Origin: a phage
Assembly: GCA_019338205.1 (NCBI GenBank)
Contig: GCA_019338205.1_4761.1
DNA length: 64,000 nt
Strand: one strand, 5' to 3'
The notes under the pieces are model-generated. The model searched no databases and was not told the DNA's origin. It saw nothing but the letters and a program-made list of their open reading frames with translations. The position numbers and the translations under genes were made by a program. Positions 7,974-64,000 of the stretch are shown piece by piece; the first letter of the stretch is position 1; every line of letters starts with the position of its first letter.

Positions 7974-9773
7974 TCACCCAAGATCAATACGGCTACCATC
8001 AATTTTAACTGTACCAGATGCAATATCTTTAACGCTTGCACCACAATTACGGGACCAGTCACCATTAACCTGATCTGATTTAGTGCCATTGACGGTCATA
8101 TTAAAATTACCCTCAACGGTTAAATCATAGTTACCTTTAATTGTTTCGGTAGTGTTACCCTCGATCATTAATTCAGCATTACCCTTGACGTTAGCCGTCA
8201 AATTGGCGTCAAGCTGCGCGGTAACATCACCTACAACATGCATATTTGCAGTACCTTCAACGGTCTGATTAACATTGCCACGAATAAATTCAGTGACGTT
8301 ACCATCAACGGTTTGCATCACATTACCCATATAATAAACTTGCGCGTCACCTTCAACAACAACTTGCAGATTGCCTTTAACGTTGACTTTGCGACCTTGC
8401 TTAACGATCAAATAATCATCACCTTCAATCTTTTCTACCCTCGTTCCGTCCGGTCTGGTTTCTTCAAATGTACCAGAAGGATGTTTACGATGATAACGCT
8501 CGTGAGAAGGAGTATCATCAATCTCGATAATATGACCGCTCTCTGACTCGTACACATGGTTATATGGATACCTTGCAGAATACGAACTCTTAGGCTCTTT
8601 AAACATGATTCGTGTGTCTTGTGGGGTAAACGGTGCTTCTGGGTCTTCTTCTGCTCTCTGCGTCTTATAGGCAGCAATACGGGCATTTCTCAAACGTGCT
8701 CTCGGATCATCTGAAACAGTTTCCTCTTTCTTAGGAGCAATTACGCCATATGATTCTAAGTTGCCAGTAAGAATAATTTTAGAAACACGGCTGGAGCGTC
8801 CTGGAGTTTGATTAGCCCATACTGATTGACGTAATCCATCATAGGCTTGTTTCCATTCTTCCGCTAACATCGCAGCAAGACTATTCTTAAATTTACCCAA
8901 TCCACCAACGCCCATTTGAAACGCCATATTTTCTAATGCCATACGACGTGAGGCATTACATTTATTATAGACAGGTGCAATTCGTGGATGTTTGCGCATA
9001 TCACGACGAGTCTTTTCTATATCGTCAGCAAATACTTTACTAACTTCTTCGGCGGTAAGTCTTCCGTTTGTAACTTCACGCCCTACCAGCTTAGAAAGTT
9101 CATTATTGATAATACCCAGATCACTGGTTTTCTTATAAATGATCAAATGCCCGATGCCTATTGTCGGATATCCTTCTGAATCAAGATACCATTTCTCGCG
9201 ATATCCCTCATCGCCCCGCAGCATTTTTTCTATTGTAAAATCAGGATTATCATCAACCGGAATTTGGTCTAATGGCTCGTCGTCTGGATTTACTGCAACT
9301 CCAGTGTTTTCATCTCGAATATAGACACTATCAGGTTTTGTTGTTTGTCCGGTTTCTGGGTTAATACCGCCACGAGCAAGAATATTAACATCATTACCAA
9401 TATAACGAGGATATGCACCAGAAGGGTCGCAAAAACCTTCTGTAGTGAGTGGTTTCTCTGTATATTGTCCGGCAATAGTACCCAGAATAACGCAGTTTAA
9501 ATAACGTTCATCTAAAGCCAAACCAAATACCATTGAACCTTCAACAATACCAGTAGGGCTTTGACCTATACCGGAGATCGCCGCGCTTGTAATATCTTGT
9601 ACTGGCGTAATCCATAATAGATCTTCGGTTGGAAGACCTTGAATGTCACCGTGTGCGGATAGCGAAGGATGTATACCATGAATCCTAACCTGAACACGCC
9701 CCAGCATTAATGGGTCTTCCCTGTTTTCTACAATTCCGGTAAACCATTTAACGGAGTTATTAAACATTAGCAT
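7974..9773 (-). CDS. 5: baseplate hub / tail-associated lysozyme gp5
   Basis: 599 aa; T4-lysozyme-like motif DSEGYPTIGIGHLI; C-terminal beta-helix repeats (VxGxxxxx); N-terminal OB-fold region; T4 gp5 is 575 aa. Confidence 0.9.
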   Translation of the reverse strand: MLMFNNSVKWFTGIVENREDPLMLGRVQVRIHGIHPSLSAHGDIQGLPTEDLLWITPVQDITSAAISGIGQSPTGIVEGSMVFGLALDERYLNCVILGTIAGQYTEKPLTTEGFCDPSGAYPRYIGNDVNILARGGINPETGQTTKPDSVYIRDENTGVAVNPDDEPLDQIPVDDNPDFTIEKMLRGDEGYREKWYLDSEGYPTIGIGHLIIYKKTSDLGIINNELSKLVGREVTNGRLTAEEVSKVFADDIEKTRRDMRKHPRIAPVYNKCNASRRMALENMAFQMGVGGLGKFKNSLAAMLAEEWKQAYDGLRQSVWANQTPGRSSRVSKIILTGNLESYGVIAPKKEETVSDDPRARLRNARIAAYKTQRAEEDPEAPFTPQDTRIMFKEPKSSYSARYPYNHVYESESGHIIEIDDTPSHERYHRKHPSGTFEETRPDGTRVEKIEGDDYLIVKQGRKVNVKGNLQVVVEGDAQVYYMGNVMQTVDGNVTEFIRGNVNQTVEGTANMHVVGDVTAQLDANLTANVKGNAELMIEGNTTETIKGNYDLTVEGNFNMTVNGTKSDQVNGDWSRNCGASVKDIASGTVKIDGSRIDLG

Positions 9774-11574: not shown

Positions 11575-12396
11575 ATGAGCGTATTTGAAATAATCACAGA
11601 AGACGAAAAGCCGTCTCCCCAAAAACGAAAGTCTAAACAGTGGGTCGAATTGGGTGTAGAATTTGCGAAAGCAAAAGCCAAAGGCATGACAGCTAAAGCA
11701 TTTGCAGATTCTAAGGGAATAGCCTATGCGACTTTCACTAAAAGTATGTCTCGTTATGCCAGCGAAATTAAAACAGCAATAGAAGTTGAAAAACTAAAAG
11801 GGAAAAGTGCAAAGGGTCTCAATAAGCAGCAACGCGCAATGATGATGATTAATGATTTTCGTGCGTCTATGCGTGCTGTATCAAAGAGTCGTCCTAAAGA
11901 AAAATCACAGGAATGGTTTACTAAAACAATAAAAGCGGGAATAAAGGGACACCAGATTGTAAAACCGCAAGTAGGGCGAATCTATACCTTTATGTATGAT
12001 GCTAAGTATAAAGACACTTTGCCATATTGGGATGTTTTCCCACTGATCATTTGTCTGGGTGATTCTAAGACAAAGGCGGGTAATACTGTAATGCTGGGTC
12101 TTAACTTACACTATGTAACGCCTAAAGCCCGTCAGCAGTTTCTGGAAGCACTTTTAAAGCAATATGCATCTACTCCTACCTTGAGTAATAAAACACGCTT
12201 AAAAATCAAATGGAGCGATGTAAAAGGTATGCGTGGTAGTGACCACATGATCAAAGCATATCTACCGGGACACATTAAAACAAAACTTGTTGAGATTAGC
12301 CCGAAAGACTGGAGCAATATTATCTACCTTAACACATATAAATTTGTTTCTAAAGGTAAAAACTATGATGCAAGGAAGGTGTGGAAGGATGCTTAA
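11575..12396 (+). CDS. 2: DNA end protector protein gp2
   Basis: 273 aa versus T4 gp2 274 aa; synteny 4-2-3; SD GAGGAT. Confidence 0.55.
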   Translation: MSVFEIITEDEKPSPQKRKSKQWVELGVEFAKAKAKGMTAKAFADSKGIAYATFTKSMSRYASEIKTAIEVEKLKGKSAKGLNKQQRAMMMINDFRASMRAVSKSRPKEKSQEWFTKTIKAGIKGHQIVKPQVGRIYTFMYDAKYKDTLPYWDVFPLIICLGDSKTKAGNTVMLGLNLHYVTPKARQQFLEALLKQYASTPTLSNKTRLKIKWSDVKGMRGSDHMIKAYLPGHIKTKLVEISPKDWSNIIYLNTYKFVSKGKNYDARKVWKDA

Positions 12397-13417
12397 TATT
12401 AATTCCGTGGGGAGCAATCCCCACGTTTATTATCTTCGTCAACCGGAAGAAATAGAATACAGAGTAAACAAGGTAACAAAATCTCCTAGAGAATTTGCGG
12501 ATAAAGTTATTGAAAGGTGTAAACTTGTCGACCATACATTCTTAGGATTTTCTGGAGAATGGAAAGGAAAATTGACTAGATCTGTTATCCAATGCAATAA
12601 GCATGGAACTGTCTATGATGTTTCCAGTAATAGTTTCTATGCTAAAAAGGTTATTGTTGGTTGCCCTCAATGTAGGGGAGTTATGACAGAAGAGGAAGCA
12701 ACCAAATTCATTGAAGAAAAATGTAAAGATCTTGATTATGAATTTTTGGGATTTGTTGGTGGCTGGAAATCACAAATTACTAAGATGATTCTTAGATGCA
12801 AGAAACATGACCATATTTGGAAGAATACAAAGTTCTTTGATTTTAAAAATCATGGTACATGTGGTTGTAAGAAATGTGCGGCTGAACAATTTAAGACGGA
12901 ATATGTCGTTCCCGTGGAAGATGCACTATCTAGAATAGAAGATAAATGTAAAAAGTTAGGGTATGAATATATAGGTGTCGATGGTGAATGGATAGGTACT
13001 GCAAATTCATGGATAAAACTTAAATGTACAAAACATGACGCAGAATTTTCTGTAAGATATTGTACGTTCAACAGAAATGCTAAAGGGTGTCCGAAATGTA
13101 GTTCTTCTGGCTATCGTCCATCTGAGATGGGATATTTTTATATCCAGACGTTAGATGATAAATTTATAAAGTTTGGTGTAACCAATGAATTACCGGAAAC
13201 CAGAATGAAACAACATATGCAGAAATCTAAGTTTGTTCACAAACTTGTTTACGTCAAACAAAGTGTTGATGGCTGGATTCCGTGGGAACTTGAAAAGGAA
13301 ATAAAGAGAACTTATCATTGTGGCGTTGTTGATAAATCCATGTTGAAAGATGGATACACAGAAACTTTACCAATCACGGAACTTGATAACATAATTAAAT
13401 TAGCTGATACATATTAA
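12389..13417 (+). CDS. putative endonuclease: three tandem Zn-ribbon-like repeats plus C-terminal GIY-YIG/T5orf172-like domain
   Basis: three ~57-aa repeats each with CxKH...GCPxC; C-terminal GYFYIQ...KFGVT...R..QH; inserted between genes 2 and 3; start taken at ATG 12389. Confidence 0.55.
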   Translation: MLNINSVGSNPHVYYLRQPEEIEYRVNKVTKSPREFADKVIERCKLVDHTFLGFSGEWKGKLTRSVIQCNKHGTVYDVSSNSFYAKKVIVGCPQCRGVMTEEEATKFIEEKCKDLDYEFLGFVGGWKSQITKMILRCKKHDHIWKNTKFFDFKNHGTCGCKKCAAEQFKTEYVVPVEDALSRIEDKCKKLGYEYIGVDGEWIGTANSWIKLKCTKHDAEFSVRYCTFNRNAKGCPKCSSSGYRPSEMGYFYIQTLDDKFIKFGVTNELPETRMKQHMQKSKFVHKLVYVKQSVDGWIPWELEKEIKRTYHCGVVDKSMLKDGYTETLPITELDNIIKLADTY

Positions 13418-34888: not shown

Positions 34889-34902
34889 TGTGAGGTGAAT
34901 TT

Positions 34903-35196
34903 ATGCTGTCTACTCGTAAAATGGTTGTTGGTGTCGCTGAAAATGCTTTAGAAATCGCTGATGAGGCTTTGACCGTCGCTTATGTTCGACGTGAAGAATT
35001 GCTATTGAAACACGCGGATCTATTGGTTGAACGGAAAGAGACTATGAAAGCTGGTAAAAGCACGCTCGCGATTGCCATTAAACTATCTGATAGTGAAGAT
35101 GAGATCGTGGAGATCCACACTAAGATCAAGGAAGTAGAAAAATACTCTGAAATGCTGCGACATAATCTTGATGAATTAGGGGTAAATCATGGCTAA
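34903..35196 (+). CDS. hypothetical protein (97 aa)
   Basis: ORF track. Confidence 0.4.
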   Translation: MLSTRKMVVGVAENALEIADEALTVAYVRREELLLKHADLLVERKETMKAGKSTLAIAIKLSDSEDEIVEIHTKIKEVEKYSEMLRHNLDELGVNHG

Positions 35197-35410
35197 GTTA
35201 CGATCTGGACGAGTTTTAACGCTGGCTGAACTGAAAGAAAAAGGTTTAGACCCTGATTCTGTAGGTATTAGACCTATTAATTACATTCTGTTTCTAGAGG
35301 GTAAACTCTTTACTAATGCTCATCCAGCATTAAATGCACCACATTTTTATAAGTGCAATGACTTTAACGGCTATATCGTTCCAGAATATTTCTTAGAATT
35401 TGATGATTAG
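35189..35410 (+). CDS. hypothetical protein (73 aa)
   Basis: ORF track. Confidence 0.4.
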   Translation: MAKLRSGRVLTLAELKEKGLDPDSVGIRPINYILFLEGKLFTNAHPALNAPHFYKCNDFNGYIVPEYFLEFDD

Positions 35411-37741: not shown

Positions 37742-37770
37742 TTGACAATAAGAAATGGGAGTAGTAAAAT
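37742..37770 (+). promoter_or_regulatory. early promoter cassette with hairpin enclosing -10 (TTGACA-N17-TAAAAT)
   Basis: TTGACA 37742-37747; gggagt/actccc stem around TAAAAT 37765-37770. Confidence 0.5.
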
Positions 37771-37801
37771 ACTCCCATCTAATCAAGAAGGAGAATCAAC
37801 A

Positions 37802-38074
37802 ATGCGTAAGATGTTTAAATCCGGTGTGGCCTATGTTTTTAAATCTGAGCAAGCACGTAAAGACTTCCTAGAGGATGACTACGAAGGATTGAAAGATACC
37901 TACGAAGTCATCAAGAATGGGTTTACTGTTCTTAAAGTGTCACCTATTGGTTATGTAAGTGAAATCTCGGTTGATGGGAAAACATATACCGCTAAAGACT
38001 TTGATCCGCGTTGGGAATTTATGCTTCTTCCGTGTGACCGCATTCTGTTTCGTGCTGTTCAATTAGTGAAATGA
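37802..38074 (+). CDS. single-domain member of nrdD-flanking multigene family
   Basis: GFTVLKV...W...DRILFRAV module shared with ORFs 38089-46583. Confidence 0.5.
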   Translation: MRKMFKSGVAYVFKSEQARKDFLEDDYEGLKDTYEVIKNGFTVLKVSPIGYVSEISVDGKTYTAKDFDPRWEFMLLPCDRILFRAVQLVK

Positions 38075-38088
38075 TAGAGGATTATATT

Positions 38089-38649
38089 ATGGTACAGAAA
38101 ACATACAAAGTATATTCGGTTAAGTCACCCAATGACGCTGTTTTTGAACGAGGTCGTTACTATACTTTCCGTAGTGCAGAAACAGTCGCAGAATTTATCA
38201 AACGATGTCCGCAACATAATAAGTTCTTGTATGACGTGCTTTGTAACGGCTTTAAAGTTCTCACTGTTGATGCGATGGGGCGTGTGTATCTGGTAGAAAC
38301 TCATGAGTATGAAGGTGCATCTGTTCTGATTGCTGCAAACGAGCGAAAATACTTTAAACGCATCACTAAAAAGCAGTTTGAAGAAATGAAACCAATTAAG
38401 AAAGAAGAATCTCTGGAAGATCTGATTAACTTGTTTGCGAAGTCTTCTTTGGTATCATTGACGCTGGAAGATTTTAGCTTTGATAATCAGCTATACTTTA
38501 AAAATGCCGATGACTTGAAAGATTTTCTGATTGAGAATAAACCTAAGCTAGAAACCTATATCAAAGGTGAGATTAAGCGCATGGAACATCAAGCAAAATA
38601 TAGCGCAGATAAAGTAGCTGAACTGAAAGAGATCCAAAGGTCACTTTAA
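38089..38649 (+). CDS. nrdD-flanking multigene family protein (beta-module plus helical tail)
   Basis: GFKVLTVD...ERKYFKRI module; C-terminal LKDFL...PKL helical segment. Confidence 0.5.
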   Translation: MVQKTYKVYSVKSPNDAVFERGRYYTFRSAETVAEFIKRCPQHNKFLYDVLCNGFKVLTVDAMGRVYLVETHEYEGASVLIAANERKYFKRITKKQFEEMKPIKKEESLEDLINLFAKSSLVSLTLEDFSFDNQLYFKNADDLKDFLIENKPKLETYIKGEIKRMEHQAKYSADKVAELKEIQRSL

Positions 38650-38652
38650 CGC

Positions 38653-38681
38653 TTGACATGATGAAACGGGAGTAGTAAGAT
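38653..38681 (+). promoter_or_regulatory. early promoter cassette with hairpin enclosing -10 (TTGACA-N17-TAAGAT)
   Basis: TTGACA 38653-38658; gggagt/actccc stem around TAAGAT 38676-38681. Confidence 0.5.
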
Positions 38682-38712
38682 ACTCCCATCTAAACAACGA
38701 GAGGATTATATT

Positions 38713-39891
38713 ATGGCTAAATTCTTTGAAGGGCATTACTACGCATTCCGTGAAGGCGGTAAAGATGAGTTTCTAGACTTTTCTCGCTATTCAATTACTC
38801 TGACCGATACTTCGCGCCGTGGTCATATTCGGGTTGCTGAAATTGTAGAAAAGGGCTTTAAAGTATTAGAAAAAGATGACCACGGTCATGTTGTTACTAT
38901 TGAAGCTGGAGATGTAGTTTATTCCGCTGAGGATATCGTTTATTATTGGGCTACTATGATTATGCACAATGAGCGCAAATACTTTAAACGCATCTCAAAA
39001 GAGGCATACGAAGCGATGAACAAGAAAGAGGATGCAATGCCGACTTACTTTGAAAAAGGTAAATGTTATTCGTTTACCCCGGAAGGTTTGCAAGAATTTA
39101 AGCGATTCTGGGGAGAGCATGATCCAGAGCACAAAGAAGCCATGAAACTTGTTGATTTTGTCGAATATGGCTTTTTAGTTGAAGAAGAATTGCACGGATC
39201 GGCTACCATGATCACCGCGAAAGGTGAAACTGTTAAGGCGGATCGTTTTTGTGACCAATGGAATTGCTTGTTTGACGGTAGCGAATTTGAATACTTCGCG
39301 GAAATCACGCGAGTTGAATATGTCCGTATGCAAGAGCGTGGTCAGAGATTTAAAGTAGGCGAACGATACAAGCCAAATCCACATAATTTGCCTCATTGGT
39401 TTAATACTGAAACCGTATCCAGTCATGTTATTGAAATTATTAAAACGCTGGAACATGGATTTAAGGTAACTAAAGTAGATTCTTTCGGAAGTGTTGACGC
39501 TGTTGAAGTTGATGGTGTAGAATATACTCCTAAATCTTTCGGGCTTTGCTGGTATCACCTGATCAGCAATGATGAACGTTATTACTTTGTTGAACTGCCA
39601 TCTGAACCGGAAGAAGCACTAGAAGATCATGATCATCTGTCTGAACTGGTTAAGCTGTTTGGTGATCTGCCGGATGGTGTAGGGGTGGCGGTAATGGGTG
39701 AAGGTGCTGTTATCCGAAACCTGAAAGACTTTAAAAAGTTCTTGATTGACATGCTGCCTAAACTTGATGATAATCTCGATAAAGATATTCAGAATCGCAA
39801 AGAAATTGTTAAAGATACTGAAAAAGAGATCGAAGAGATTCGAGCAATTCGCCAGAAGGTGAAAGCAGTAAAGAAAAAAGTTAGTTCTTGA
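38713..39891 (+). CDS. nrdD-flanking multigene family protein with three tandem modules
   Basis: three internal repeats each ending (E/D)R(K/Y)YF..(I/L) plus C-terminal LKDFKKFL...PKL helical tail. Confidence 0.5.
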   Translation: MAKFFEGHYYAFREGGKDEFLDFSRYSITLTDTSRRGHIRVAEIVEKGFKVLEKDDHGHVVTIEAGDVVYSAEDIVYYWATMIMHNERKYFKRISKEAYEAMNKKEDAMPTYFEKGKCYSFTPEGLQEFKRFWGEHDPEHKEAMKLVDFVEYGFLVEEELHGSATMITAKGETVKADRFCDQWNCLFDGSEFEYFAEITRVEYVRMQERGQRFKVGERYKPNPHNLPHWFNTETVSSHVIEIIKTLEHGFKVTKVDSFGSVDAVEVDGVEYTPKSFGLCWYHLISNDERYYFVELPSEPEEALEDHDHLSELVKLFGDLPDGVGVAVMGEGAVIRNLKDFKKFLIDMLPKLDDNLDKDIQNRKEIVKDTEKEIEEIRAIRQKVKAVKKKVSS

Positions 39892-39915
39892 CATGCGAAG
39901 GGAGTATGCTATAAT
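39888..39915 (+). promoter_or_regulatory. early promoter cassette TTGACA-N16-TATAAT flanked by gggagt/actccc
   Basis: TTGACA 39888-39893 overlaps upstream stop; TATAAT 39910-39915 inside hairpin loop. Confidence 0.55.
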
Positions 39916-39945
39916 ACTCCCACTTAACAACGAGAGGATTATATT

Positions 39946-40440
39946 ATGTGGGTACAAGATGTTTGGTATACTGTAACTAAAGAAAACCTTGACGCATTCA
40001 GCGACCAATCTTGCGCTAATAGCTCAATTGCTGATATTCTTGAAGATGTGTTTGGTGGTGTAGATAAAATTCGTTTTAAAGTTGTTGTTAATTCTATGGG
40101 GTGTGTAAAAGACCTATATACCGATGATAAAGACCTTGATCTTAAACTTCATCTTCGTATTGATAATGCAAGTCTAGGTTATTGGTTTGAAGATAACGAG
40201 TATGAATACTTCACACCAGCAATTAAAGTTTTTGCAACTAAACTGGAAGCTGTACTAAATCTCCGACCAATTAATGTTGACGGTTACATTATCAAAAATA
40301 TTCAGGAGTGGGATTCATATCTAGATCAGATTATCCGAAATAGTAAGCAGGAAGCCGCTAATAAGAAGCGACAAGAGATCAAACAACTGAAAGCTGAACT
40401 GGAAGCGGCGGAAAAAGAATTAGCAGAACTGGTAAAATAA
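39946..40440 (+). CDS. hypothetical protein with C-terminal coiled coil (possible family member)
   Basis: ORF track; C-terminal helical/coiled-coil segment similar to family tails. Confidence 0.4.
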   Translation: MWVQDVWYTVTKENLDAFSDQSCANSSIADILEDVFGGVDKIRFKVVVNSMGCVKDLYTDDKDLDLKLHLRIDNASLGYWFEDNEYEYFTPAIKVFATKLEAVLNLRPINVDGYIIKNIQEWDSYLDQIIRNSKQEAANKKRQEIKQLKAELEAAEKELAELVK

Positions 40441-40450
40441 CTATCAACGA

Positions 40451-40471
40451 GCGGGAGAAATCCCGCTTTTT
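40451..40471 (+). terminator. intrinsic terminator
   Basis: gcggga-gaaa-tcccgc hairpin plus TTTTT. Confidence 0.7.
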
Positions 40472-40484
40472 CATAGGTGATACA

Positions 40485-42347
40485 ATGGAAAAACTAATCA
40501 AAGACATTACAGAGATCGCAACGGGTAAAGAAAACGAAGTAAGCAAAGAGAACGCGAACAAAGACGCGCGAACATTCCCGACACGTCGAGATCTGATTGC
40601 TGGTGCTGTGTCTAAACAGATTGCTAAAACCGTGTTACCTGAGCACATCTATAAAGCGCATGTAGACGGTGATATTCATTATCATGATATGGATTATGCA
40701 CCCGCTATGCCGTTTACTAACTGCTGTCTTGTTAATCTAAAAGACATGTTAGAGAATGGTTTTAAATTGGGTAGCGCACAAATCGAAAGTCCGAAATCAA
40801 TCGGCGTTGCTTGTGCTGTAACCGCTCAAATTATCGCACAGGTGGCAAGTCATCAATATGGCGGGACCACAATTGCAAATATCGATCAGGTGTTAGCGCC
40901 GTATGTTGAGAAAACATATCATAAACACCTTGCTGATGCCGAAACCTACGGAATCAAAGCTAATACTCTCTATGCACAAGAGAAGACAGAAAAAGAAACG
41001 CTAGACGGATATCAGGCGTTGGAATATGAGATCAACACTTTGTTCTCTACCAACGGTCAAACACCTTTTGTGACTTTAACCTTTGGTATGGGTACTAGCT
41101 GGGAAGAAAAACTGATTCAGAAAGCGATCTTGAAAGTTAGAATTAAAGGTTTAGGTAAAGATGGTATAACTCCGGTGTTTCCTAAGCTGGTGATGTTCTT
41201 AGAAGAAGGATTAAACCTTAAACCGGAAGATCCGAACTACGACATTAAGCAACTTGCATTGGAATGTTCTAGTAAGCGTCTTTACCCTGATTATATCTCT
41301 GCGAAGAATAACCGTAGTATCACCGGATCTAGTGTTCCGGTTAGCCCGATGGGTTGTCGTAGCTTCCTGGGTGTGTGGCATAATGAGAAAGACGAGGAAG
41401 TATTAGACGGACGTAATAACTTAGGTGTTGTGACTCTGAATCTTCCGCGTATTGCCCTTATTGCCTCGCGTCGTGCTGGTAAAGCGTCTGTAATGCGCAG
41501 AATTGAGCTATTCGAACAAGAGCTAGCTAATCGTATGCCTATTTGCTTTGATGCGCTCATGAGTCGCGTAGACGCTTTAAAAGGGGCTAAAGCCAATGTT
41601 GCTCCGGTGCTGTATACAGAAGGTGCATTTTTCCGTATTCATCAAAACGATGAAATTTTGGAAGTGCTGAAAGATGGTCGCGCTAGTATCTCTCTTGGAT
41701 ATATTGGTTTACATGAGGTATTGAGCGTCCTGTTTGGTGTTCATCCGTTTGATTCGGAAGATGCGCAGCGATACGGTAAACATATTCTTAAGATCTTGCG
41801 TCATTATACTGAAAAATGGAAGGATGAAACCGGACTTGGGTTTAGTCTTTACGGTACGCCAGCCGAGAGCCTTTGCTATCGATTTAATCGACTGGATCGA
41901 GAGCAATTTGGTATTGTTAAGGGTGCTACCGATAAAGACTGGTACACTAACTCATTCCACCTTGACGTAGACCGGAAAGTCACACCATTTGAGAAAATCG
42001 ACTTTGAGAAAGATTATCACTGGCTGGCGTCCGGTGGCATGATCTCTTATGTTGAGTTCCCAGACATGAAAAACAACCTGAAAGGTCTTGAAACTGTAGT
42101 AGACTATGCAATGGATAAATTGCACTACTTCGGTGTTAATACTCCTTCTGATGTATGTCATGTATGCGGATCTAATAAGGAAATGAGAGCGACCGAGTCT
42201 GGTTTTGTTTGCCCTGATTGCGGCAATGACAATCTGGAAAAGATGAATGTTATCCGTCGCGTTAGTGGATATCTTGGATCTGTTGATCTGCGTCCATTTA
42301 ACCACGGGAAACATTCCGAGATGGTAAACCGCGTTAAGCACATGTAA
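40485..42347 (+). CDS. nrdD: anaerobic ribonucleoside-triphosphate reductase NrdD (intron-less)
   Basis: 620 aa; C-terminal Zn ribbon CHVCG...CPDCG and glycyl radical motif RVSGYLG. Confidence 0.93.
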   Translation: MEKLIKDITEIATGKENEVSKENANKDARTFPTRRDLIAGAVSKQIAKTVLPEHIYKAHVDGDIHYHDMDYAPAMPFTNCCLVNLKDMLENGFKLGSAQIESPKSIGVACAVTAQIIAQVASHQYGGTTIANIDQVLAPYVEKTYHKHLADAETYGIKANTLYAQEKTEKETLDGYQALEYEINTLFSTNGQTPFVTLTFGMGTSWEEKLIQKAILKVRIKGLGKDGITPVFPKLVMFLEEGLNLKPEDPNYDIKQLALECSSKRLYPDYISAKNNRSITGSSVPVSPMGCRSFLGVWHNEKDEEVLDGRNNLGVVTLNLPRIALIASRRAGKASVMRRIELFEQELANRMPICFDALMSRVDALKGAKANVAPVLYTEGAFFRIHQNDEILEVLKDGRASISLGYIGLHEVLSVLFGVHPFDSEDAQRYGKHILKILRHYTEKWKDETGLGFSLYGTPAESLCYRFNRLDREQFGIVKGATDKDWYTNSFHLDVDRKVTPFEKIDFEKDYHWLASGGMISYVEFPDMKNNLKGLETVVDYAMDKLHYFGVNTPSDVCHVCGSNKEMRATESGFVCPDCGNDNLEKMNVIRRVSGYLGSVDLRPFNHGKHSEMVNRVKHM

Positions 42348-42353
42348 TTTTCA

Positions 42354-42384
42354 GCCGATCCGAAAGGGTCGGCTTTTTCGTTTT
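42354..42384 (+). terminator. intrinsic terminator
   Basis: gccgatcc-gaaag-ggtcggc hairpin plus TTTTTCGTTTT. Confidence 0.7.
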
Positions 42385-42390
42385 GGGGTG

Positions 42391-42418
42391 TTGACAACCT
42401 GATTAGCTAATGTATAAT
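42391..42418 (+). promoter_or_regulatory. early promoter cassette TTGACA-N16-TATAAT
   Basis: TTGACA 42391-42396, TATAAT 42413-42418, leader tcacatcgaaaacaacgagagg. Confidence 0.6.
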
Positions 42419-42447
42419 GCTCACATCGAAAACAACGAGAGGACAAC

Positions 42448-42990
42448 ATGATGATGATGTTTTGTGTACTGAGCAAAGAAGTTAAACTTCGTAAACTGGA
42501 AATTGGCGATGGTGTTGTTGTTAAAATGCACGCTAGCACATTGGCTAGTTTTAATTTAAAGGAAAGTTTTTTTATTAGAGGAACGGTGGTTAATATCTGC
42601 TGGAGTCAATGCGAAGGAATCCGTAGCTTTTGCGTAATTGACGATGATAATAACCTGTATGTGATTCGCTATCATAATAATTCTGTATTGGTCTATACCG
42701 ACAATTCACGAGAATTATATACTCTTGAATTTGTTAAGCGTACTGATTGCGACCTATTTGTTCGTGCTTATGAAGAAGATGGCTGTTTTGCGACTGAAAC
42801 AGAAACAAATGAATATGTTCCTATGGAAGTAGGGGCAGAAATTAAACACAAGATCACGGATCGTATTTTTAAGGTTGTGGCGGTTGCTCATACTCAATTT
42901 GTAGCGCAAGCGCCGGATGAAGAATTTATTATCTACAATATTGGTAATGCAAGTTCTCATTTTCATAATGTACTATATCGCGACCTTTGA
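42448..42990 (+). CDS. hypothetical early protein (starts MMMMFCVL)
   Basis: ORF track; cassette leader. Confidence 0.5.
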   Translation: MMMMFCVLSKEVKLRKLEIGDGVVVKMHASTLASFNLKESFFIRGTVVNICWSQCEGIRSFCVIDDDNNLYVIRYHNNSVLVYTDNSRELYTLEFVKRTDCDLFVRAYEEDGCFATETETNEYVPMEVGAEIKHKITDRIFKVVAVAHTQFVAQAPDEEFIIYNIGNASSHFHNVLYRDL

Positions 42991-43007
42991 TAATGTGTGA
43001 GGTGAAT

Positions 43008-43529
43008 ATGAAATCATTAAACCGTAAGCGTAAAGCACAACGACACAAAGAACGAGCTAAAAAGATTGCTATTGAACTCTGTGAGCGTGAGGATAGCTAT
43101 TTGTCTACTGGTCGTTTGTATACATTCCATGCATTGATTGATGGTAAGCCAGTGTTGCATAATCATGATTGCTTGGCACTGTTTCACGAGATCGAACCAA
43201 TCCATCGTGAATGTGATGACAACAAAGCAAAAGGTCAATATTTCCTTACGTGTTCGTGTGGTCATGCTGGTTGTGCTGGATATTGGGAACCTGTTACTAT
43301 CCGTGAGAAAAATGATACCATTCAATGGGTCGCCCGTACCCGCGATGGTTATGATAAAGGTGCTGATGGTACTGGCGATAACGTAGTTTACTTTAATCGT
43401 GATTGGTATTATATGGCGCGATGTATGATCCTGTTTTATCTTGACTCGATGCCGTATGAATATTTCAGTTTCCAGAATGGGACCGAACTGACAGGGAAGG
43501 AATGGTCTGAATACATTCGAAAAATTTAA
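43008..43529 (+). CDS. hypothetical Cys/His-rich protein (173 aa)
   Basis: ORF track frame; ATG 43008. Confidence 0.45.
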   Translation: MKSLNRKRKAQRHKERAKKIAIELCEREDSYLSTGRLYTFHALIDGKPVLHNHDCLALFHEIEPIHRECDDNKAKGQYFLTCSCGHAGCAGYWEPVTIREKNDTIQWVARTRDGYDKGADGTGDNVVYFNRDWYYMARCMILFYLDSMPYEYFSFQNGTELTGKEWSEYIRKI

Positions 43530-43538
43530 AATAAATGC

Positions 43539-43567
43539 TTGACGGGGATCGCGAGATCCCCTATACT
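43539..43567 (+). promoter_or_regulatory. early promoter cassette with spacer palindrome (TTGACG-gggatcgcgagatccc-TATACT)
   Basis: TTGACG 43539-43544; spacer palindrome; TATACT 43562-43567. Confidence 0.55.
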
Positions 43568-43609
43568 ATATTCATCAAGACGAGATACAACTTTACAGGA
43601 GAATCAAAT

Positions 43610-43762
43610 ATGTGGACTTTACTGATTTGGGAAACTGAAAACGCACAAGTAGAAATCCGTGAATACGAATACCTAAGCCCAGCTTATCTATTAGCATCTC
43701 GCGGTGGTTACTATAAAGCGCAGATTGTAAACGAGTTCGGGGTGATTGAATATGAGTTCTGA
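43610..43762 (+). CDS. small protein (50 aa)
   Basis: ATG after ggagaatcaaat leader. Confidence 0.4.
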   Translation: MWTLLIWETENAQVEIREYEYLSPAYLLASRGGYYKAQIVNEFGVIEYEF

Positions 43763-44255
43763 TACATACGGCAAACTACGCTATGCCGATATTAAAGATT
43801 GTGATATGGTTAACGGTGAGGGAGTGAGAGTCTCCCTTTACGTTACCGGATGTTCACACGCATGTGATGGTTGCTTTAATGCTAGCCTACTCAATCCTAA
43901 GAACGGGGAACCATTCACCGATGATACAATGGGATTGATTCTGGATCTGCTTAGACCTGATTTTATTCAGGGGCTAACATTCTTAGGTGGCGATCCACTG
44001 TATAAACGCAATTTAAAGGGTGTACAGCGGATCATCGATGAAGTAAAATCATGGATGCCAAATAAAGATATTTGGCTATGGTCTGGTTATACCCTTGACC
44101 AATTGAATGATGAGCAAAGAAAAATTGTAGAATCAGTTGACATGTTCATTGATGGGCGTTATATTAAAGATATGCCAACGAAGAAGCCGTGGCGGGGGTC
44201 TGACAATCAAGTACAATACAAGATTGTTAATAGTATTCCAGTGAAAATTATTTGA
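43752..44255 (+). CDS. nrdG: anaerobic ribonucleotide reductase activating protein NrdG (radical SAM)
   Basis: CSHACDGC (C-x3-C-x2-C) radical-SAM cluster motif; 167 aa. Confidence 0.9.
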   Translation: MSSDTYGKLRYADIKDCDMVNGEGVRVSLYVTGCSHACDGCFNASLLNPKNGEPFTDDTMGLILDLLRPDFIQGLTFLGGDPLYKRNLKGVQRIIDEVKSWMPNKDIWLWSGYTLDQLNDEQRKIVESVDMFIDGRYIKDMPTKKPWRGSDNQVQYKIVNSIPVKII

Positions 44256-44265
44256 GGTGATTATT

Positions 44266-44793
44266 ATGAAATGGGAAGTTGGTAAAACTTACAAGATTGA
44301 ATGCGAAGCGTCGAAAGCCGAACTAACTAAATTTTCGTCGTCTATTAACAGATGTATTGTTGACTTGTTGGCTGGTCGCCCGTTTAGGGTAGAAGACCTT
44401 GACGATGATGGTGATGTTAGAGAAATTACTGTTATTGGTAGTAATTTCGACTCTATGACGTTAAAAGAATCCCCTATTGGCTGTTCCGGCGTGTGGTTTT
44501 GGTCGGGTGAGCGTCGTTTCTTTACCGAAGTTACTATTGAACCTAAGATTCCAGATTCGGAAGAAAAAGAAGAAGACCTAACTTTAGAACGCCTGGGTCT
44601 GCTTATGGAAGCCTACGACATTCAGTTGATCGATAAGATGGGGTTACATAATAGCATTGCCAAAATTACTACCCTAGAAGGTATTAAGAGCGTACTGGAT
44701 GGTATGCCTAGCCGGATCGGTGCTATCCGAGAATACAAACAAACGCGCGACCGTATGATCCAATTAGAATCACGTATCAAAAATGAGAGATGA
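44266..44793 (+). CDS. KWEVGKTY-family protein (nrdD-flanking multigene family)
   Basis: MKWEVGKTY...RPFRV...WFWSGERRFFTEV plus helical tail. Confidence 0.5.
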   Translation: MKWEVGKTYKIECEASKAELTKFSSSINRCIVDLLAGRPFRVEDLDDDGDVREITVIGSNFDSMTLKESPIGCSGVWFWSGERRFFTEVTIEPKIPDSEEKEEDLTLERLGLLMEAYDIQLIDKMGLHNSIAKITTLEGIKSVLDGMPSRIGAIREYKQTRDRMIQLESRIKNER

Positions 44794-44797
44794 TATT

Positions 44798-45262
44798 ATG
44801 AAATGGGAAGTTGGTAAAACCTATGCGTGGAAAGATGTAAAAGATGCAAACCAATTTTTTAAATGGTATGATGTTGATTATTTGAAATATCTGAGATTAC
44901 CGTTTAAAGTTGCGTCGGTTGATGCGAAAAAAGGATACGTGCGGTCTGTATATCTTCATGATGGAACTTATATGAGTTCAACCGATGTAGGTCTATCTTG
45001 TTGGTTTCTGGATCATGACCGTAGCAGATTTGAAGAAATTATTATTCCAGAAGAATCTAAATTAATTGATCTTCTCAAGTTGGCGATGGATAATTATAAA
45101 ATCCGCTTTGAATGCAAATCACATGCGGCTATCGGTGCTAACGCATTGCGTCATATCTCCAGTTTTGAAGAGTTGAAAGATTTTCTTGACAAAATGCCGG
45201 AAAGAGTGCAAGCTATACAGGAAGCAGAGAAAGCATTAAACGAACTTGATAAAATCGGTTAA
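44798..45262 (+). CDS. KWEVGKTY-family protein
   Basis: MKWEVGKTYAWKD...CWFLDHDRSRFEEI plus tail ELKDFLDKMPERV. Confidence 0.5.
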   Translation: MKWEVGKTYAWKDVKDANQFFKWYDVDYLKYLRLPFKVASVDAKKGYVRSVYLHDGTYMSSTDVGLSCWFLDHDRSRFEEIIIPEESKLIDLLKLAMDNYKIRFECKSHAAIGANALRHISSFEELKDFLDKMPERVQAIQEAEKALNELDKIG

Positions 45263-45274
45263 GGGGAATATATT

Positions 45275-46099
45275 ATGAAATGGGAAATTGGTAAAACTTA
45301 CACCTGGAAAGACGAAAACGCTAAAACTGAGTTTATTACTAACGGAGAAGGTGTTCTTTCTCCACTTAACAGCGATATTAGTGCAGCTATTGGTGACAAG
45401 CCATTTACCATCATCGAGATCGAGGGTAACGGTTGGATTGATGCAATAGAGCTAGACGGTGTTTATCATACGGCGAAAACTGCTACAGGAAAAGACATTT
45501 GGACTGCAACATATTTCTTTAGTCCATTCGATAGAAAATTCTTTCGTGAAGTTGAAGAAGTTCCCCAGAAATGGGAAGTTGGTAAAACTTATACTTGGAA
45601 AGATGTGAATGCTATGACAGACTTCTGCCATTATGCTGAAAACGCATCTAACCTTAATTATGTTATTGCACGAGCAATAAATTATAGACCTTTTACTGTT
45701 AAAAATGTTCGTCCATGTGGGCAAATTGATGTAATTGAAATTGATGGTAAAGACCATACTCTAATGAGCGCAACCGAAGATAGAGACCATAAAGGAACTA
45801 GCTGGTTTATTGATTCTGATAGAAAATTCTTTCGTGAAGTAGAAGAATTGGAAGTTATAACCACTGATTCTAAGATCGTTGGACAGTTGAAACGTCTGTT
45901 TAGTAGTCGTTACGGCCTGACAATGGTTAAATTTGGCGAAGCAAATGAAGGTAAAACCTTTGAACGTTTCGATGATTTCATTGCGGCACTTGACAAGATG
46001 GATGAAATCATGCAAGATCGCCAGAAGATTAAAGACCTTCAAGAAGACATTAAACGTCGTGAAGTTGAATTTTTGATTGGTAAAGAGCGAGGTTGGTAA
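45275..46099 (+). CDS. KWEVGKTY-family protein with two tandem modules
   Basis: two copies of KWE(I/V)GKTYTWKD...DRKFFREVEE module plus helical tail. Confidence 0.5.
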   Translation: MKWEIGKTYTWKDENAKTEFITNGEGVLSPLNSDISAAIGDKPFTIIEIEGNGWIDAIELDGVYHTAKTATGKDIWTATYFFSPFDRKFFREVEEVPQKWEVGKTYTWKDVNAMTDFCHYAENASNLNYVIARAINYRPFTVKNVRPCGQIDVIEIDGKDHTLMSATEDRDHKGTSWFIDSDRKFFREVEELEVITTDSKIVGQLKRLFSSRYGLTMVKFGEANEGKTFERFDDFIAALDKMDEIMQDRQKIKDLQEDIKRREVEFLIGKERGW

Positions 46100-46100
46100 T

Positions 46101-46583
46101 ATGTTTGTTGCTGGCGTGACCTATCAGTGGAAAGATAAGAAAACGAGAGAAGATTTTGCAAACTTTAGCGTTGCAAATGATGCAATAGCAGAGTTTATAG
46201 GCGACCGTCCATTTAAAGTTATCGCATTTGATCACCATGCATCGGATGTTGATTATGTTTCTGCGATTGAAATTGATGGCACGGTATACACCTGCTGCAA
46301 TGTTGATGATGTACGGGAATACGCGCACAACTGGTTTTTGCAATCAGAAGAACGTCATTTTAAAGTGGTATCGGCAGAACTGACCACTGATGCAATGTTG
46401 GAACAATTTTTCAACAACTACGAAGTTTCTGTACGTCGATACGGTGAAGAGGAAGTATTTAAAATTGATGACTATAATCAGTTTAAACGAGTATTCGCCA
46501 CTAAGATCCAACGTGATATTGAACGCGAGAAGCGCATTAAGGAACTGGAAGAAGAACTAGAAAGATTAAAGGCTGAGAAATGA
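46101..46583 (+). CDS. KWEVGKTY-family protein (divergent)
   Basis: GVTYQWKD...RPFKV...NWFLQSEERHFKVV plus coiled-coil tail. Confidence 0.5.
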   Translation: MFVAGVTYQWKDKKTREDFANFSVANDAIAEFIGDRPFKVIAFDHHASDVDYVSAIEIDGTVYTCCNVDDVREYAHNWFLQSEERHFKVVSAELTTDAMLEQFFNNYEVSVRRYGEEEVFKIDDYNQFKRVFATKIQRDIEREKRIKELEEELERLKAEK

Positions 46584-47018: not shown

Positions 47019-47306
47019 ATGTTAGTACACAATGCAATCGCACACATGGTTTATTCTCGATTTGGGCGCATGGAAGAAATCAATATTACCGACGCAGATT
47101 TAGATCTGATGCAAGTCGAAGGCCAGACATATCTGAAAAATAACGGCGTGAATATCGGTAAAGCGCGTGTGCGTGAATTGTTAGTTGAATATATTCTCTC
47201 TGAATTTGGCATTAGTGCTTTCGGTGTGAAAGAGATTGCACCTAAGCGCGAAATTTCTGATAAAATGATCAAGAAATGCCAGAAAGCACGACGTAAGGGT
47301 TTCTAA
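47019..47306 (+). CDS. hypothetical protein (95 aa)
   Basis: ATG 47019 with SD GAGGAA. Confidence 0.45.
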   Translation: MLVHNAIAHMVYSRFGRMEEINITDADLDLMQVEGQTYLKNNGVNIGKARVRELLVEYILSEFGISAFGVKEIAPKREISDKMIKKCQKARRKGF

Positions 47307-48775
47307 TGAAGATTGAAACATTAATTGCATTGCCAGCGGCGGGGAAAACTGATGCTATACTTTCCCACGTCCTAGAGACAAAAGAAAAAGCGGTTATTGC
47401 TTCGCCATCTCGTGTTTTAAGTGAACAATCTTACAATAAGTTTAAAAGAATGGGCGGTCGTGCTGTCTTGATTGATAGCACAAGACTAAGAAGCCTTAAG
47501 ACAGTGCAAGCGTCGATAATGCAATCAGTTAAAGACGGTGCTGATGTGATATTCATTACACATACAGCGTTATCTAATATGGAACGTTCAAAAATGTTTG
47601 GTGAATATGCTCTTTACATTGATGAAGTTCCTCAACTGGTTGAATTTAATGAGTATCCGTTTAAGTCTAATCTTGAACTTATCACGAAGCATTGCGAACC
47701 AATCGCCGACGAATCGGAATGCCTACAGAACTTAGTTCTAAAAGACTCTGAGAAGGCCGTTATCAAAGAAAAGATAGAAAGTGCAAAGGATGGTACTGAT
47801 ATGATCGATTCTTCTCTTAGAGGGCTTTATGAGGCGTTATTAGAGAAGAAAATCAACGTTATGGTAAAACATAACGAAGGACACCGGAAGAATGGGTCGA
47901 AAATTGTTTTCTTGAACGATAACAAACACGGTACGTGGGGAGACTTTAAAAAGGTTACGATAGCATGTGCAAATCTCTTTGATACATATAGCGGGAAGTA
48001 TCTACGATACTATGCAAATTGCGATTTTGTTCCGAGTGCGCTAGAATCCAGACTATATTTCAAAGAGTATAAAAATACAGATAGAGTTAATATCATCCTT
48101 ATGACGGACTCTGAACGATGGTCGCGTCACCAGTCAGAAACAAACAATACCTTTGAACGTCTTGTTGATATGGTTAAAAATGAATGTGGCGATGACTTCA
48201 TTTATACCGTGAATCGGGACCGAGAAGCGTGTACAAATGGTATTGGTGAGCGGATACCTTACGGATCTTATGGTCTTAACTCTTACATTCATCATAAAAA
48301 TGTTGCTGTGATGTTCAGCTTTAACCCGCAACGATGGGAGATTGATATTTTAAAAGGTCTTGCTAATAGTTGTGATCTCCCGACAAACGAGTTTTTGAAA
48401 GCGCGTCATGTGTCTGATTATCTGGAACCAGCATTTCAATTATGTTTGCGTTGTAACCTGAGAGACAACGAGAGCAAGGAGAATGTTAATCTATATGTTC
48501 CTGATTTGGCGTTGGTAGATTATCTAAAAACGTTTCTACCTGATGCCAATGTAATAACAGACCGAATGATTCCGCTAGAATGTGGTGAGCGTAAAGGGCG
48601 AAAATCATTTAAAAAGATGTTCGATTTTAACGAGCAAGAGAATGCAAGATTTAACGGATTTAAGTACCGCATGAAGAAAAAGGGAAAAACTCTTGATCCG
48701 TCTGACGGTGAATCTGTAGAGATGGTTAGAGTGTGGATAACTAAGCAAAGAAAGTATAATGGTAATGGGGAATAG
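47306..48775 (+). CDS. P-loop NTPase of unknown function (489 aa)
   Basis: Walker A LPAAGKTDA and Walker B ALYIDEVP; no counterpart recognised at this position in T4. Confidence 0.55.
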   Translation: MKIETLIALPAAGKTDAILSHVLETKEKAVIASPSRVLSEQSYNKFKRMGGRAVLIDSTRLRSLKTVQASIMQSVKDGADVIFITHTALSNMERSKMFGEYALYIDEVPQLVEFNEYPFKSNLELITKHCEPIADESECLQNLVLKDSEKAVIKEKIESAKDGTDMIDSSLRGLYEALLEKKINVMVKHNEGHRKNGSKIVFLNDNKHGTWGDFKKVTIACANLFDTYSGKYLRYYANCDFVPSALESRLYFKEYKNTDRVNIILMTDSERWSRHQSETNNTFERLVDMVKNECGDDFIYTVNRDREACTNGIGERIPYGSYGLNSYIHHKNVAVMFSFNPQRWEIDILKGLANSCDLPTNEFLKARHVSDYLEPAFQLCLRCNLRDNESKENVNLYVPDLALVDYLKTFLPDANVITDRMIPLECGERKGRKSFKKMFDFNEQENARFNGFKYRMKKKGKTLDPSDGESVEMVRVWITKQRKYNGNGE

Positions 48776-63692: not shown

Positions 63693-64000
63693 ATGATCGC
63701 TAATGCTTTACCGCCAAAATGGATCGTAAGTCGCTTTTATACTCTCAAGGAAGGTAACGCACCTGATGGTCGTCCGATCCGAGATCTGTTTCTGGAGATG
63801 ACTACAGCCGAAGCACAGTTTTATAATGATCTGACAGACGATAAGCCATTTCTCGTAAATTCGGTGGACCTTGATGGCAATGTCACATCAATCATCACAC
63901 ATGGTGGGGGAGTGAAAAATATTACTTCTCTGCGTGATCACGGTTGGGAAATTGCTTGTGTATTTCCTGCGGATGTACGCGGATTCTTTGATGAGGTATC
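63693..64000 (+). CDS. hypothetical protein, N-terminal part (runs off window end)
   Basis: ATG 63693 with SD AGGAG; open to window end. Confidence 0.4.
   Translation, partial: MIANALPPKWIVSRFYTLKEGNAPDGRPIRDLFLEMTTAEAQFYNDLTDDKPFLVNSVDLDGNVTSIITHGGGVKNITSLRDHGWEIACVFPADVRGFFDEV

Follow-up and report, generated by a model that had tools for sequence, protein, structure and literature searches.

In a T4-type genome, roughly one third consists of early genes of unknown function; among the few of these that offer a genetic handle are those of the GoF family, through the suppression of rho mutants and the stability of gene 41 mRNA. This family, which encompasses GoF (also named ComC-alpha), Frd.2 and MotB.1 of phage T4, was defined in 2025 by Kim et al. 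(PMC12152347), who call its fold "LSm-like" and report that none of the three genes is essential, that GoF is made early and abundantly, and that both GoF and MotB.1 run as monomers and dimers; RB49, tandem modules and PinA receive no mention in that paper. Two other described systems are relevant here: PinA, a T4 protein that is a direct binding partner of the host protease Lon and a possible competitor of HspQ (PMC8835725), and the PeSLs of phages RB49 and phi1, which are strong early promoters plus terminators that mediate gene shuffling (Arbiol et al. 2010, PMC2839356). Here we analyze a 64,000-nucleotide (nt) stretch of phage DNA (the window; contig GCA_019338205.1_4761.1 of assembly GCA_019338205.1), in which eight open reading frames (ORFs) located at 37802-46583 flank the nrdD and nrdG genes.

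These eight ORFs form two arrays, with genes A to D lying between 49 and nrdD (array 1) and genes E to H between nrdG and nrdH (array 2). Together with a ninth, dc2-like member, they very probably represent an expansion of the T4 GoF/Frd.2/MotB.1 family in Krischvirus (the RB49 group), a genus of the Straboviridae that falls outside Tevenvirinae, the subfamily of T4. The family is thus already known, and what is new here is its copy number, the tandem modules, the common tail and the exchange of alleles. Our best explanation of the locus combines this identity with early expression and a mechanism, whereby the family proteins would be dispensable early host-takeover proteins in which each barrel acts as a binding module for a host macromolecule. 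We assign this explanation, taken as a whole, a probability of about 0.5.

An earlier note, made from the sequence alone, had proposed that these ORFs share an aromatic module, duplicated internally in some of them, and belong to a multidomain paralogous family disposed on either side of nrdD and nrdG. All-against-all BLASTP joins the eight proteins in a single network (E-values of 9e-13 for E-F, 1e-11 for F-G, 8e-10 for G-H, 2e-8 for B-C and 6e-7 for A-G), and the 11 modules of about 90 residues that they carry align in register over the whole module, with Y, F and F residues invariant and a consensus of the form xxFExGxxY..F..FKVxxVDxxGxVxxIExDGxxY..F..ERxxFxE, in agreement with the motif given in the note. 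Because a profile of all modules matches its own members by construction, cross-validation was performed on 1,267 six-frame ORFs with hidden Markov models (HMMs) trained on one array only. The HMM from array 2 alone recovered C (3e-10), A (9e-10), B (1e-4) and D (0.017), and that from array 1 alone recovered G (2e-11), with F, E and H at 2-4e-4. The module HMM also supports the proposed duplications, with three modules in gene C (residues ~1-100, 112-204 and 211-301, each domain at 1e-24 to 1e-28 with the window module HMM) and two in gene G, and the gene order agrees with two arrays parted by nrdD and nrdG. Gene D, which the note had listed as a probable member, scores 1.3e-3 when excluded from training, so that it appears to be a divergent but probable member of the family; it also matches phrog_3710 (7e-5), a PHROG matched by C, E, G and H as well.

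The note had also described a helical tail with an LKDFL...P motif following the module. Tails of 65-90 amino acids (aa), preceded by an acidic linker, are present in seven of the eight proteins (B to H), gene A having none, and matches to PHROG 5347 extend over both module and tail for C, E, F, G and H. The motif, LKDF(L/K)..P, can be read literally in the tails of B, C and F, the others carrying degenerate versions. Low pairwise identity between modules (14-50%, with the two modules of gene G, G1 and G2, the closest pair at 50%) and the lack of any above-threshold match when the eight proteins were scanned with Pfam and NCBIfam might suggest that unrelated ORFs resemble each other through composition or by chance. 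We excluded this possibility, to which we give practically no weight, since the alignments span the whole module in register, HMMs trained on either array find members of the other, independent PHROG profiles match the same proteins, a database-wide profile search returns relatives beyond the Krischvirus orthologues at E-values down to 1e-10, and the structure of gene F is modelled with confidence.

The earlier note did not recognise the family, which HMM searches and existing annotations identify as the one defined in PMC12152347. An HMM built from the 11 window modules only matched T4 GoF at 2.8e-9, Frd.2 at 2e-3 and MotB.1 at 3e-3, with each match covering about 85 of 90 positions, and the HMM from array 2 alone matched T4 GoF at 1e-8. 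A broadened HMM yielded 1e-17, 1.4e-9 and 1.2e-5, respectively, the GoF value being partly circular because a GoF-like sequence was among the seeds. A profile search of 1.84 billion representative proteins returned 72 matches, about 65 of which were small phage-type proteins (76-392 aa) with one to three modules; the GoF-like protein P0125 was among the matches (3.4e-4). The seven long matches (466-5094 aa) were treated as spurious: the three that were scanned (P0095, P0122 and P0129) show no relationship, being repeat or multidomain proteins whose scores sum many short hairpin matches, and SpaA or cadherin-like repeats occur in two of the three. PHROG cross-matches extend to three PHROGs described as "goF mRNA metabolism modulator", a label that RefSeq and PHROGs give to B and C, and the 2003 annotation of RB49 named gene C "frd.2". 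No match to Pfam PF03197 (FRD2) was found in the eight window proteins, even at E<=1, while T4 Frd.2 scores 133 bits, and the name given to gene C is therefore a label for a distant family rather than a statement of orthology. The RefSeq (NC_005066) and GenBank (AY343333) records of RB49 are inconsistent, with A, D to H and Dc2 labelled "hypothetical" even though they belong to the same family as B and C. The note had named assignment of the module to a well-characterised T4 family of known function as a refuting outcome, and this applies only by half: a T4 family can be assigned, but none of its wild-type members has a demonstrated activity.

The window proteins share with the T4 GoF family an N-terminal barrel of about 90 residues with conserved G-x-x-Y, F, N, FKV, G-x-V and E-R-x-x-F-x-E-V elements, FeoA as the nearest structural neighbour, putatively early genes and a distribution confined to T4-like phages. 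Except in the tail-less gene A, they also present the family arrangement of barrel, linker and variable C-terminal part. They differ in number, with nine genes and twelve modules in Krischvirus against three genes and three modules in T4, in the presence of two or three barrels within a single chain, and in their longer common tail with a charged terminal helix. Their genes are also clustered around nrdD and nrdG, whereas those of T4 are scattered, and they reside in a phage that, unlike T4, lies outside Tevenvirinae. A scan of the whole RB49 genome revealed exactly nine family genes with twelve modules and no further members, and a search for related loci with a three-module homologue as query gave no matches. 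The T4 slot between 39 and dexA, which corresponds to RB49 5021-5971, holds no goF, cef, motB, motB.1 or motB.2 in this phage, and all of its GoF-type genes are therefore found at the nrdD/nrdG and gene 41 loci.

The earlier note had suggested modelling a module together with its tail. The AlphaFold2 model of F, computed from a 49-sequence family alignment, reached a predicted local distance difference test (pLDDT) score of 83.7, with a dip in the linker at residues 81-90. Its module is predicted to follow the order b1-a-a-b2-b3-b4-a-a-b5, with short helices between b4 and b5, and its tail comprises a helix, a beta-hairpin, a second helix with the LKDFL..P motif and a 20-residue charged terminal helix. 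In the model, the barrel is a bent antiparallel sheet of five strands, and the solved structures nearest to it are SH3-like barrels of the FeoA type. Searches of viral models with Foldseek returned many T4-like phage proteins, with Dc2 of phage ECD7 at rank 4. No Sm or Hfq proteins were present among the top 60 structural matches; we therefore consider that the predicted fold is best named an SH3-like small barrel with helical insertions, for which "LSm-like" is a loose label. No solved relative was identified in the PDB by sequence with the family profile (best E 0.18).

The likeness to Sm/LSm proteins such as Hfq lies in the small bent five-stranded antiparallel barrel and in the effect of one mutant relative, GoF(D25Y), on mRNA stability. 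The window proteins differ from them in several respects: none of the libraries scanned found an Sm1 or Sm2 motif, helices are predicted within the barrel (b1-b2 and b4-b5), where Sm proteins have one helix at the N-terminus and then five uninterrupted strands, most modules are acidic, and no ring is predicted for the GoF family (PMC12152347). The resemblance to other SH3-like barrels (FeoA, the Tudor domains of PcrA, UvrD and CarD, and the KOW domains of NusG, Spt5 and EF-P) is one of fold only, with no sequence relationship, and GoF lacks the histidines with which the FeoA/IdeR group binds metal (PMC12152347).

The structural searches also pointed to PinA. The "protease inhibitor" of phage Moon, an orthologue of T4 Pin, appeared at rank 40 among the viral models matching F, and a search with a model of T4 Pin (pLDDT 66) returned, after the Pin orthologues, Dc2 of ECD7, the JSE orthologue of F and several proteins that the F model matches, with reciprocal matches at ranks 16 and 25. 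In this model, the first 86 residues of Pin present the same order of strands and helices as the module. Comparison of the 74-module family profile with a 12-sequence Pin alignment using hhalign aligned the whole module in register, with a probability of 62-71% and pairwise E-values of 1e-5 to 4e-5; the score was 30.7, compared to 12.3 for the reversed alignment and a mean of 10 (standard deviation 2, maximum 17.3) for 200 column shuffles. No result was obtained with hhalign when the module profile was compared to a single Pin sequence, only the Pin family alignment being effective, and a Pin HMM left only sub-threshold, in-register traces on the window proteins (0.0084 for F in an 11-sequence set). 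Given the hhalign score, the reciprocal Foldseek matches and the common order of secondary structure, we consider it probable that the N-terminal domain of PinA (~95 residues) is homologous to the module at the superfamily level.

PinA further resembles the window proteins in being acidic, about 160 aa long and provided with a long C-terminal helix, and in the location of its gene next to 49: in T4, pin lies immediately upstream of 49 and nrdD directly after it, and in the window it is array 1 that stands between 49 and nrdD. It differs in a conserved C-terminal block, GERISYALAKLA..QENNDGYEGNLMQAAAEYIEWLE, that is missing from the window proteins, none of which matched Pfam PF10465 (Inhibitor_I24). 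Lon binding is known for PinA, to which the window proteins are linked by profile comparison and structural models. If the link holds, PinA would be the first member of the family with a known biochemical mode, the direct inhibition of a host enzyme, and would itself gain an assigned fold, as no solved PinA structure turned up in literature or PDB searches.

Suppressor residues in goF turn T4 GoF into a stabilizer of mRNA and a suppressor of rho mutants, and aligning the 74 modules to the family profile allowed the corresponding columns to be inspected. The column of GoF G84 holds K in 20 modules, R in 12, E in 16 and G in 2, so that K or R occupies it in 32/74 family modules and in six of the 11 window modules (B, C1, E, G1, G2 and H), and the G84R suppressor reproduces the state most often seen in the family. 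Residues at the D25 column vary, Y or W occurring in 10/74 modules (in the window, W in F and F in H), and its loop is less securely aligned; for both reasons we rejected the idea that D25Y recreates a conserved aromatic residue. In the alignment, both suppressor states thus appear to occur naturally in paralogues, and the two positions bracket N29 and E82 (GoF numbering), the most conserved of the polar residues.

These observations bear on the possibility that the modules are RNA-binding, LSm-like chaperones that shield phage transcripts from host nucleases or Rho-dependent loss, with tandem modules and dimers replacing the Sm ring. Such a role would fit the longer half-life that GoF(D25Y) confers on a reporter mRNA with the gene 41 leader (PMC12152347), the many paralogues that naturally carry "gain-of-function" residues at the G84 and D25 columns, and the neutral to basic modules of A, B and F. 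The location of the dc2-like copy next to gene 41, whose mRNA GoF(D25Y) stabilizes in T4, has also been counted in its favour and may be a coincidence. Wild-type GoF and MotB.1, however, are almost without effect in the same assay (PMC12152347), most modules are strongly acidic, the helices in the F model are inserted between b1 and b2 and between b4 and b5 rather than forming an Sm-like N-terminal helix, and AlphaFold3 gave no confident ring or dimer (PMC12152347). We therefore regard RNA chaperoning as doubtful.

We favour proteins as targets because the modules are largely acidic (isoelectric point of 4.3-5.3 in 7/11), wild-type GoF is inactive on RNA and PinA is a direct inhibitor of an enzyme. 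According to this proposal, RNA itself would be a less likely target than proteins that serve in RNA handling, transcription or proteolysis; chains would probably pair through the terminal helix, tandem modules would add valency, and paralogues and alleles would probably differ in target. Since GoF and MotB.1 form dimers as well as monomers and the F model ends in a long C-terminal helix, we infer that dimerization may proceed through the tail. On its own, the binding of host proteins by the modules is a tentative proposal, and several observations weigh against it or against the wider explanation to which it belongs. The modules of A, B and F range from neutral to basic, and His-tagged GoF pulled down from uninfected E. 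coli brought essentially nothing but itself, with no stable host partner (PMC12152347). The sole functional datum for the GoF family, that on GoF(D25Y), concerns mRNA stability and favours an RNA-related role (PMC12152347), and no activity has been demonstrated for any wild-type member. The PinA link is remote, with a Pin model of low confidence and no link in plain HMM searches between Pin and the module in either direction, and the timing of expression is deduced from promoter sequence alone.

A broader and more speculative version of the protein-binding proposal, which we consider rather improbable, would make the GoF-type barrel a general scaffold with which T4-like phages disable host machines and PinA a divergent member of it. 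The arrays would then supply a dozen binders with different targets, several natively carrying GoF gain-of-function residues, and alleles and module numbers would be swapped among strains, by way of PeSL cassettes and internal repeats, to match hosts. Whatever the targets, a phage with twelve modules constitutes a natural library in which to seek them, as it offers tandem and single, acidic and basic modules and variants at both gain-of-function positions.

To assess variation among strains, the window was compared with RB49, FL04 and E26 using a crude pairwise ratio of nonsynonymous to synonymous substitution rates (dN/dS). The proteins encoded by 49, nrdD, nrdG and nrdH are 97-100% identical between strains, with dN/dS mostly at 0.05-0.1. 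Several family members depart from this pattern: gene B is 70-78% identical between strains, gene H 70% (RB49) and 84% (FL04), genes E, F and G 70-78% against FL04, and F 69% against E26, with dS of 0.3-1.1 and dN/dS of 0.2-0.5 for the divergent alleles of B, E, F, G and H. The combination of low protein identity, raised dS and these dN/dS values points to replacement of family alleles by recombination with divergent versions, under relaxed purifying selection, rather than to drift by point mutation or positive selection in place; the latter was rejected, as dN/dS is below 1 everywhere. Recombination at PeSL cassettes and at motifs repeated within the genes would have carried alleles from one strain to another.

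One such motif is the 30-nt direct repeat that ends each module of G. In phage E26, the G gene (9001-9537 of the E26 sequence) encodes 178 aa and lacks exactly one module (96 codons), with the junction in the repeat. Module number is therefore polymorphic among Krischviruses, and phage AV108 shows a similarly short match. The duplications themselves are old, given that modules are only 14-50% identical. Together, allele replacement between strains and a clean one-module deletion show how such genes evolve.

The earlier note had regarded the expansion as typical of diversifying host-interaction or anti-defence proteins. Diversification is apparent in the presence of 69-84% identical alleles in near-identical genomes and in the varying module number, but not in dN/dS, which stays well under the value above 1 that positive selection would produce. 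These data also bear on the proposal that the arrays are counter-defence genes, each paralogue neutralizing a different host immunity protein, with allele turnover tracking the defence repertoires of E. coli. The early promoter cassettes, the location of the genes in hyperplastic, recombination-prone sites, the highly divergent alleles and variable module number, the non-essentiality of family members in laboratory hosts (PMC12152347) and the direct inhibition of a host enzyme by the remote relative PinA would all be in keeping with such a role. Yet no family member has been linked to any defence system, the crude pairwise dN/dS gives no sign of positive selection, and the eight genes are all present in 56/59 Krischvirus records at 94-97% DNA identity, which is atypical of presence/absence turnover. 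We consequently judge counter-defence to be unlikely.

The early expression invoked in our overall explanation derives from the promoter regions of array 1. A cassette with the hallmarks of the RB49/phi1 PeSLs (a consensus sigma-70 promoter, a stem-loop over the -10 box, a Shine-Dalgarno sequence and an ATG) precedes A, C and D, beginning at 37742, 38653 and 39888; the correspondence concerns regulation and mobility rather than the proteins, and we noted no difference in kind. In the cassette of gene A, a 9-bp stem-loop (37755-37778; fold of -13.8 kcal/mol, z -3.4) overlaps the -10 box. In the three cassettes, the -10 box lies in the loop of a GGGAGTA/TACTCCC hairpin. The leader AACGAGAGGATTATATTATG is common to the cassettes before C and D and is almost identical across those of A, C and D, and the -35 hexamer of the D cassette, TTGACA, encloses the stop codon of gene C (TGA, 39889-39891). 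On this basis, we infer that A (and possibly B with it), C and D are each placed behind a strong early sigma-70 PeSL cassette. Array 2 has no promoter cassette, its genes being packed between nrdG and nrdH with gaps of 1-12 nt or stop/start overlaps (the stop codon of H overlaps the start of nrdH in ATGA), and E to H are presumably translated from the nrdG-nrdH transcript. The earlier note's assertion that several copies have their own promoter consequently applies to A, C and D and fails for E to H. A terminator-like hairpin, read directly in the sequence and not listed by the consensus scan, separates D from nrdD, which has no promoter cassette before it, and nrdD thus seems to depend on read-through of this hairpin.

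The co-transcription of array 2 with nrdG and nrdH, and the location of array 1 directly upstream of nrdD, could be taken to indicate that the family members are accessory factors of anaerobic ribonucleotide reduction, positioned for that reason around nrdD, nrdG and nrdH. We deem this very unlikely: the T4 members are located elsewhere (by 39/cef, motB and frd), an HMM search found no T4 family member around nrdD/nrdG, dc2 adjoins gene 41, and PeSLs reportedly associate with nrdD because the locus is plastic.

The coordinates of the features discussed are collected in Table 1. The 8.9-kb region containing both arrays is 94-97% identical at the DNA level to about 59 Krischvirus genomes (RB49, phi1, JSE, GEC-3S, FL15 and others), and the RB49 annotation carries the same eight genes, each of which begins here with an ATG start preceded by a Shine-Dalgarno sequence. 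The genes follow each other as dam, nrdC, 49, [A B C D], nrdD, three ORFs unrelated to the family, nrdG, [E F G H], nrdH, ..., 55. Where the earlier note counted eight to nine genes at 37802-46583, eight are found there and the ninth lies outside, directly downstream of helicase gene 41, where it corresponds to RB49 dc2.

Table 1. Coordinates of family genes, neighbouring genes and regulatory elements (positions in the window unless another record is named)
Feature	Position	Strand	Description
PeSL cassette before A	37742-37801	+	TTGACA, 17 nt, TAAAAT; then Shine-Dalgarno GGAG
Gene A	37802-38074	+	90 aa; one module, no tail; RB49ORF060c; phrog_16115, phrog_5347 and phrog_622
Gene B	38089-38649	+	186 aa; 18-aa leader, one basic module (isoelectric point 9), tail; RB49ORF059c
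Gene B tail motif	within 38089-38649	+	LKDFLIENKPKL
PeSL cassette before C	38653-38712	+	TTGACA, 17 nt, TAAGAT; stem-loop GGGAGTA/TACTCCC over the -10 box
Gene C	38713-39891	+	392 aa; three modules and tail; "frd.2" in RB49
PeSL cassette before D	39888-39945	+	TTGACA, 16 nt, TATAAT; 12/12 consensus positions; stem-loop at 39900-39921
Gene D	39946-40440	+	164 aa; one divergent module (probable) and charged helical tail; RB49ORF057c
Terminator-like hairpin	40451-40471	+	GCGGGAGAAATCCCGC + TTTTT, between D and nrdD; -16.7 kcal/mol, z -4.7
nrdD	40485-42347	+	Conserved gene parting the two arrays
nrdG	43752-44255	+	Stop codon 10 nt before array 2
Gene E	44266-44793	+	175 aa; one module and tail; RB49ORF051c; phrog_5347 at 3e-66
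Gene F	44798-45262	+	154 aa; one module and tail with LKDFLDKMPER; RB49ORF050c
Gene G	45275-46099	+	274 aa; two modules (residues 1-97 and 98-194) and tail; RB49ORF049c
30-nt direct repeat	45530-45559, 45818-45847	+	97% identical, 288 nt apart; encodes DRKFFREVEE, ending each G module
Gene H	46101-46583	+	160 aa; one module and tail; RB49ORF048c
Ninth member, dc2-like	63693-64000 (cut by window end)	+	Module HMM E 2.8e-7; GoF-type ending GFFDEV
RB49 dc2	11993-12628 of the RB49 genome	-	Full counterpart of the cut-off ninth member
T4 pin	34898-35383 of the T4 record	-	Pfam PF10465

The three ORFs between nrdD and nrdG (42454-42990, 43008-43529 and 43535-43762) are not family members according to BLASTP and the module HMM. 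The first two correspond to phrog_14838 and phrog_8242, and the three together fill the slot occupied in T4 by the homing endonuclease gene mobC. The region preceding them (42353-42418) holds the nrdD terminator followed by a perfect sigma-70 promoter, with a related PeSL type before the ORF at 42454. Downstream of array 2, an ORF at 47306-48775 (489 aa, RB49p044), located between 55.2 and 55, is 99% identical across strains, with dN/dS of 0.05-0.07.

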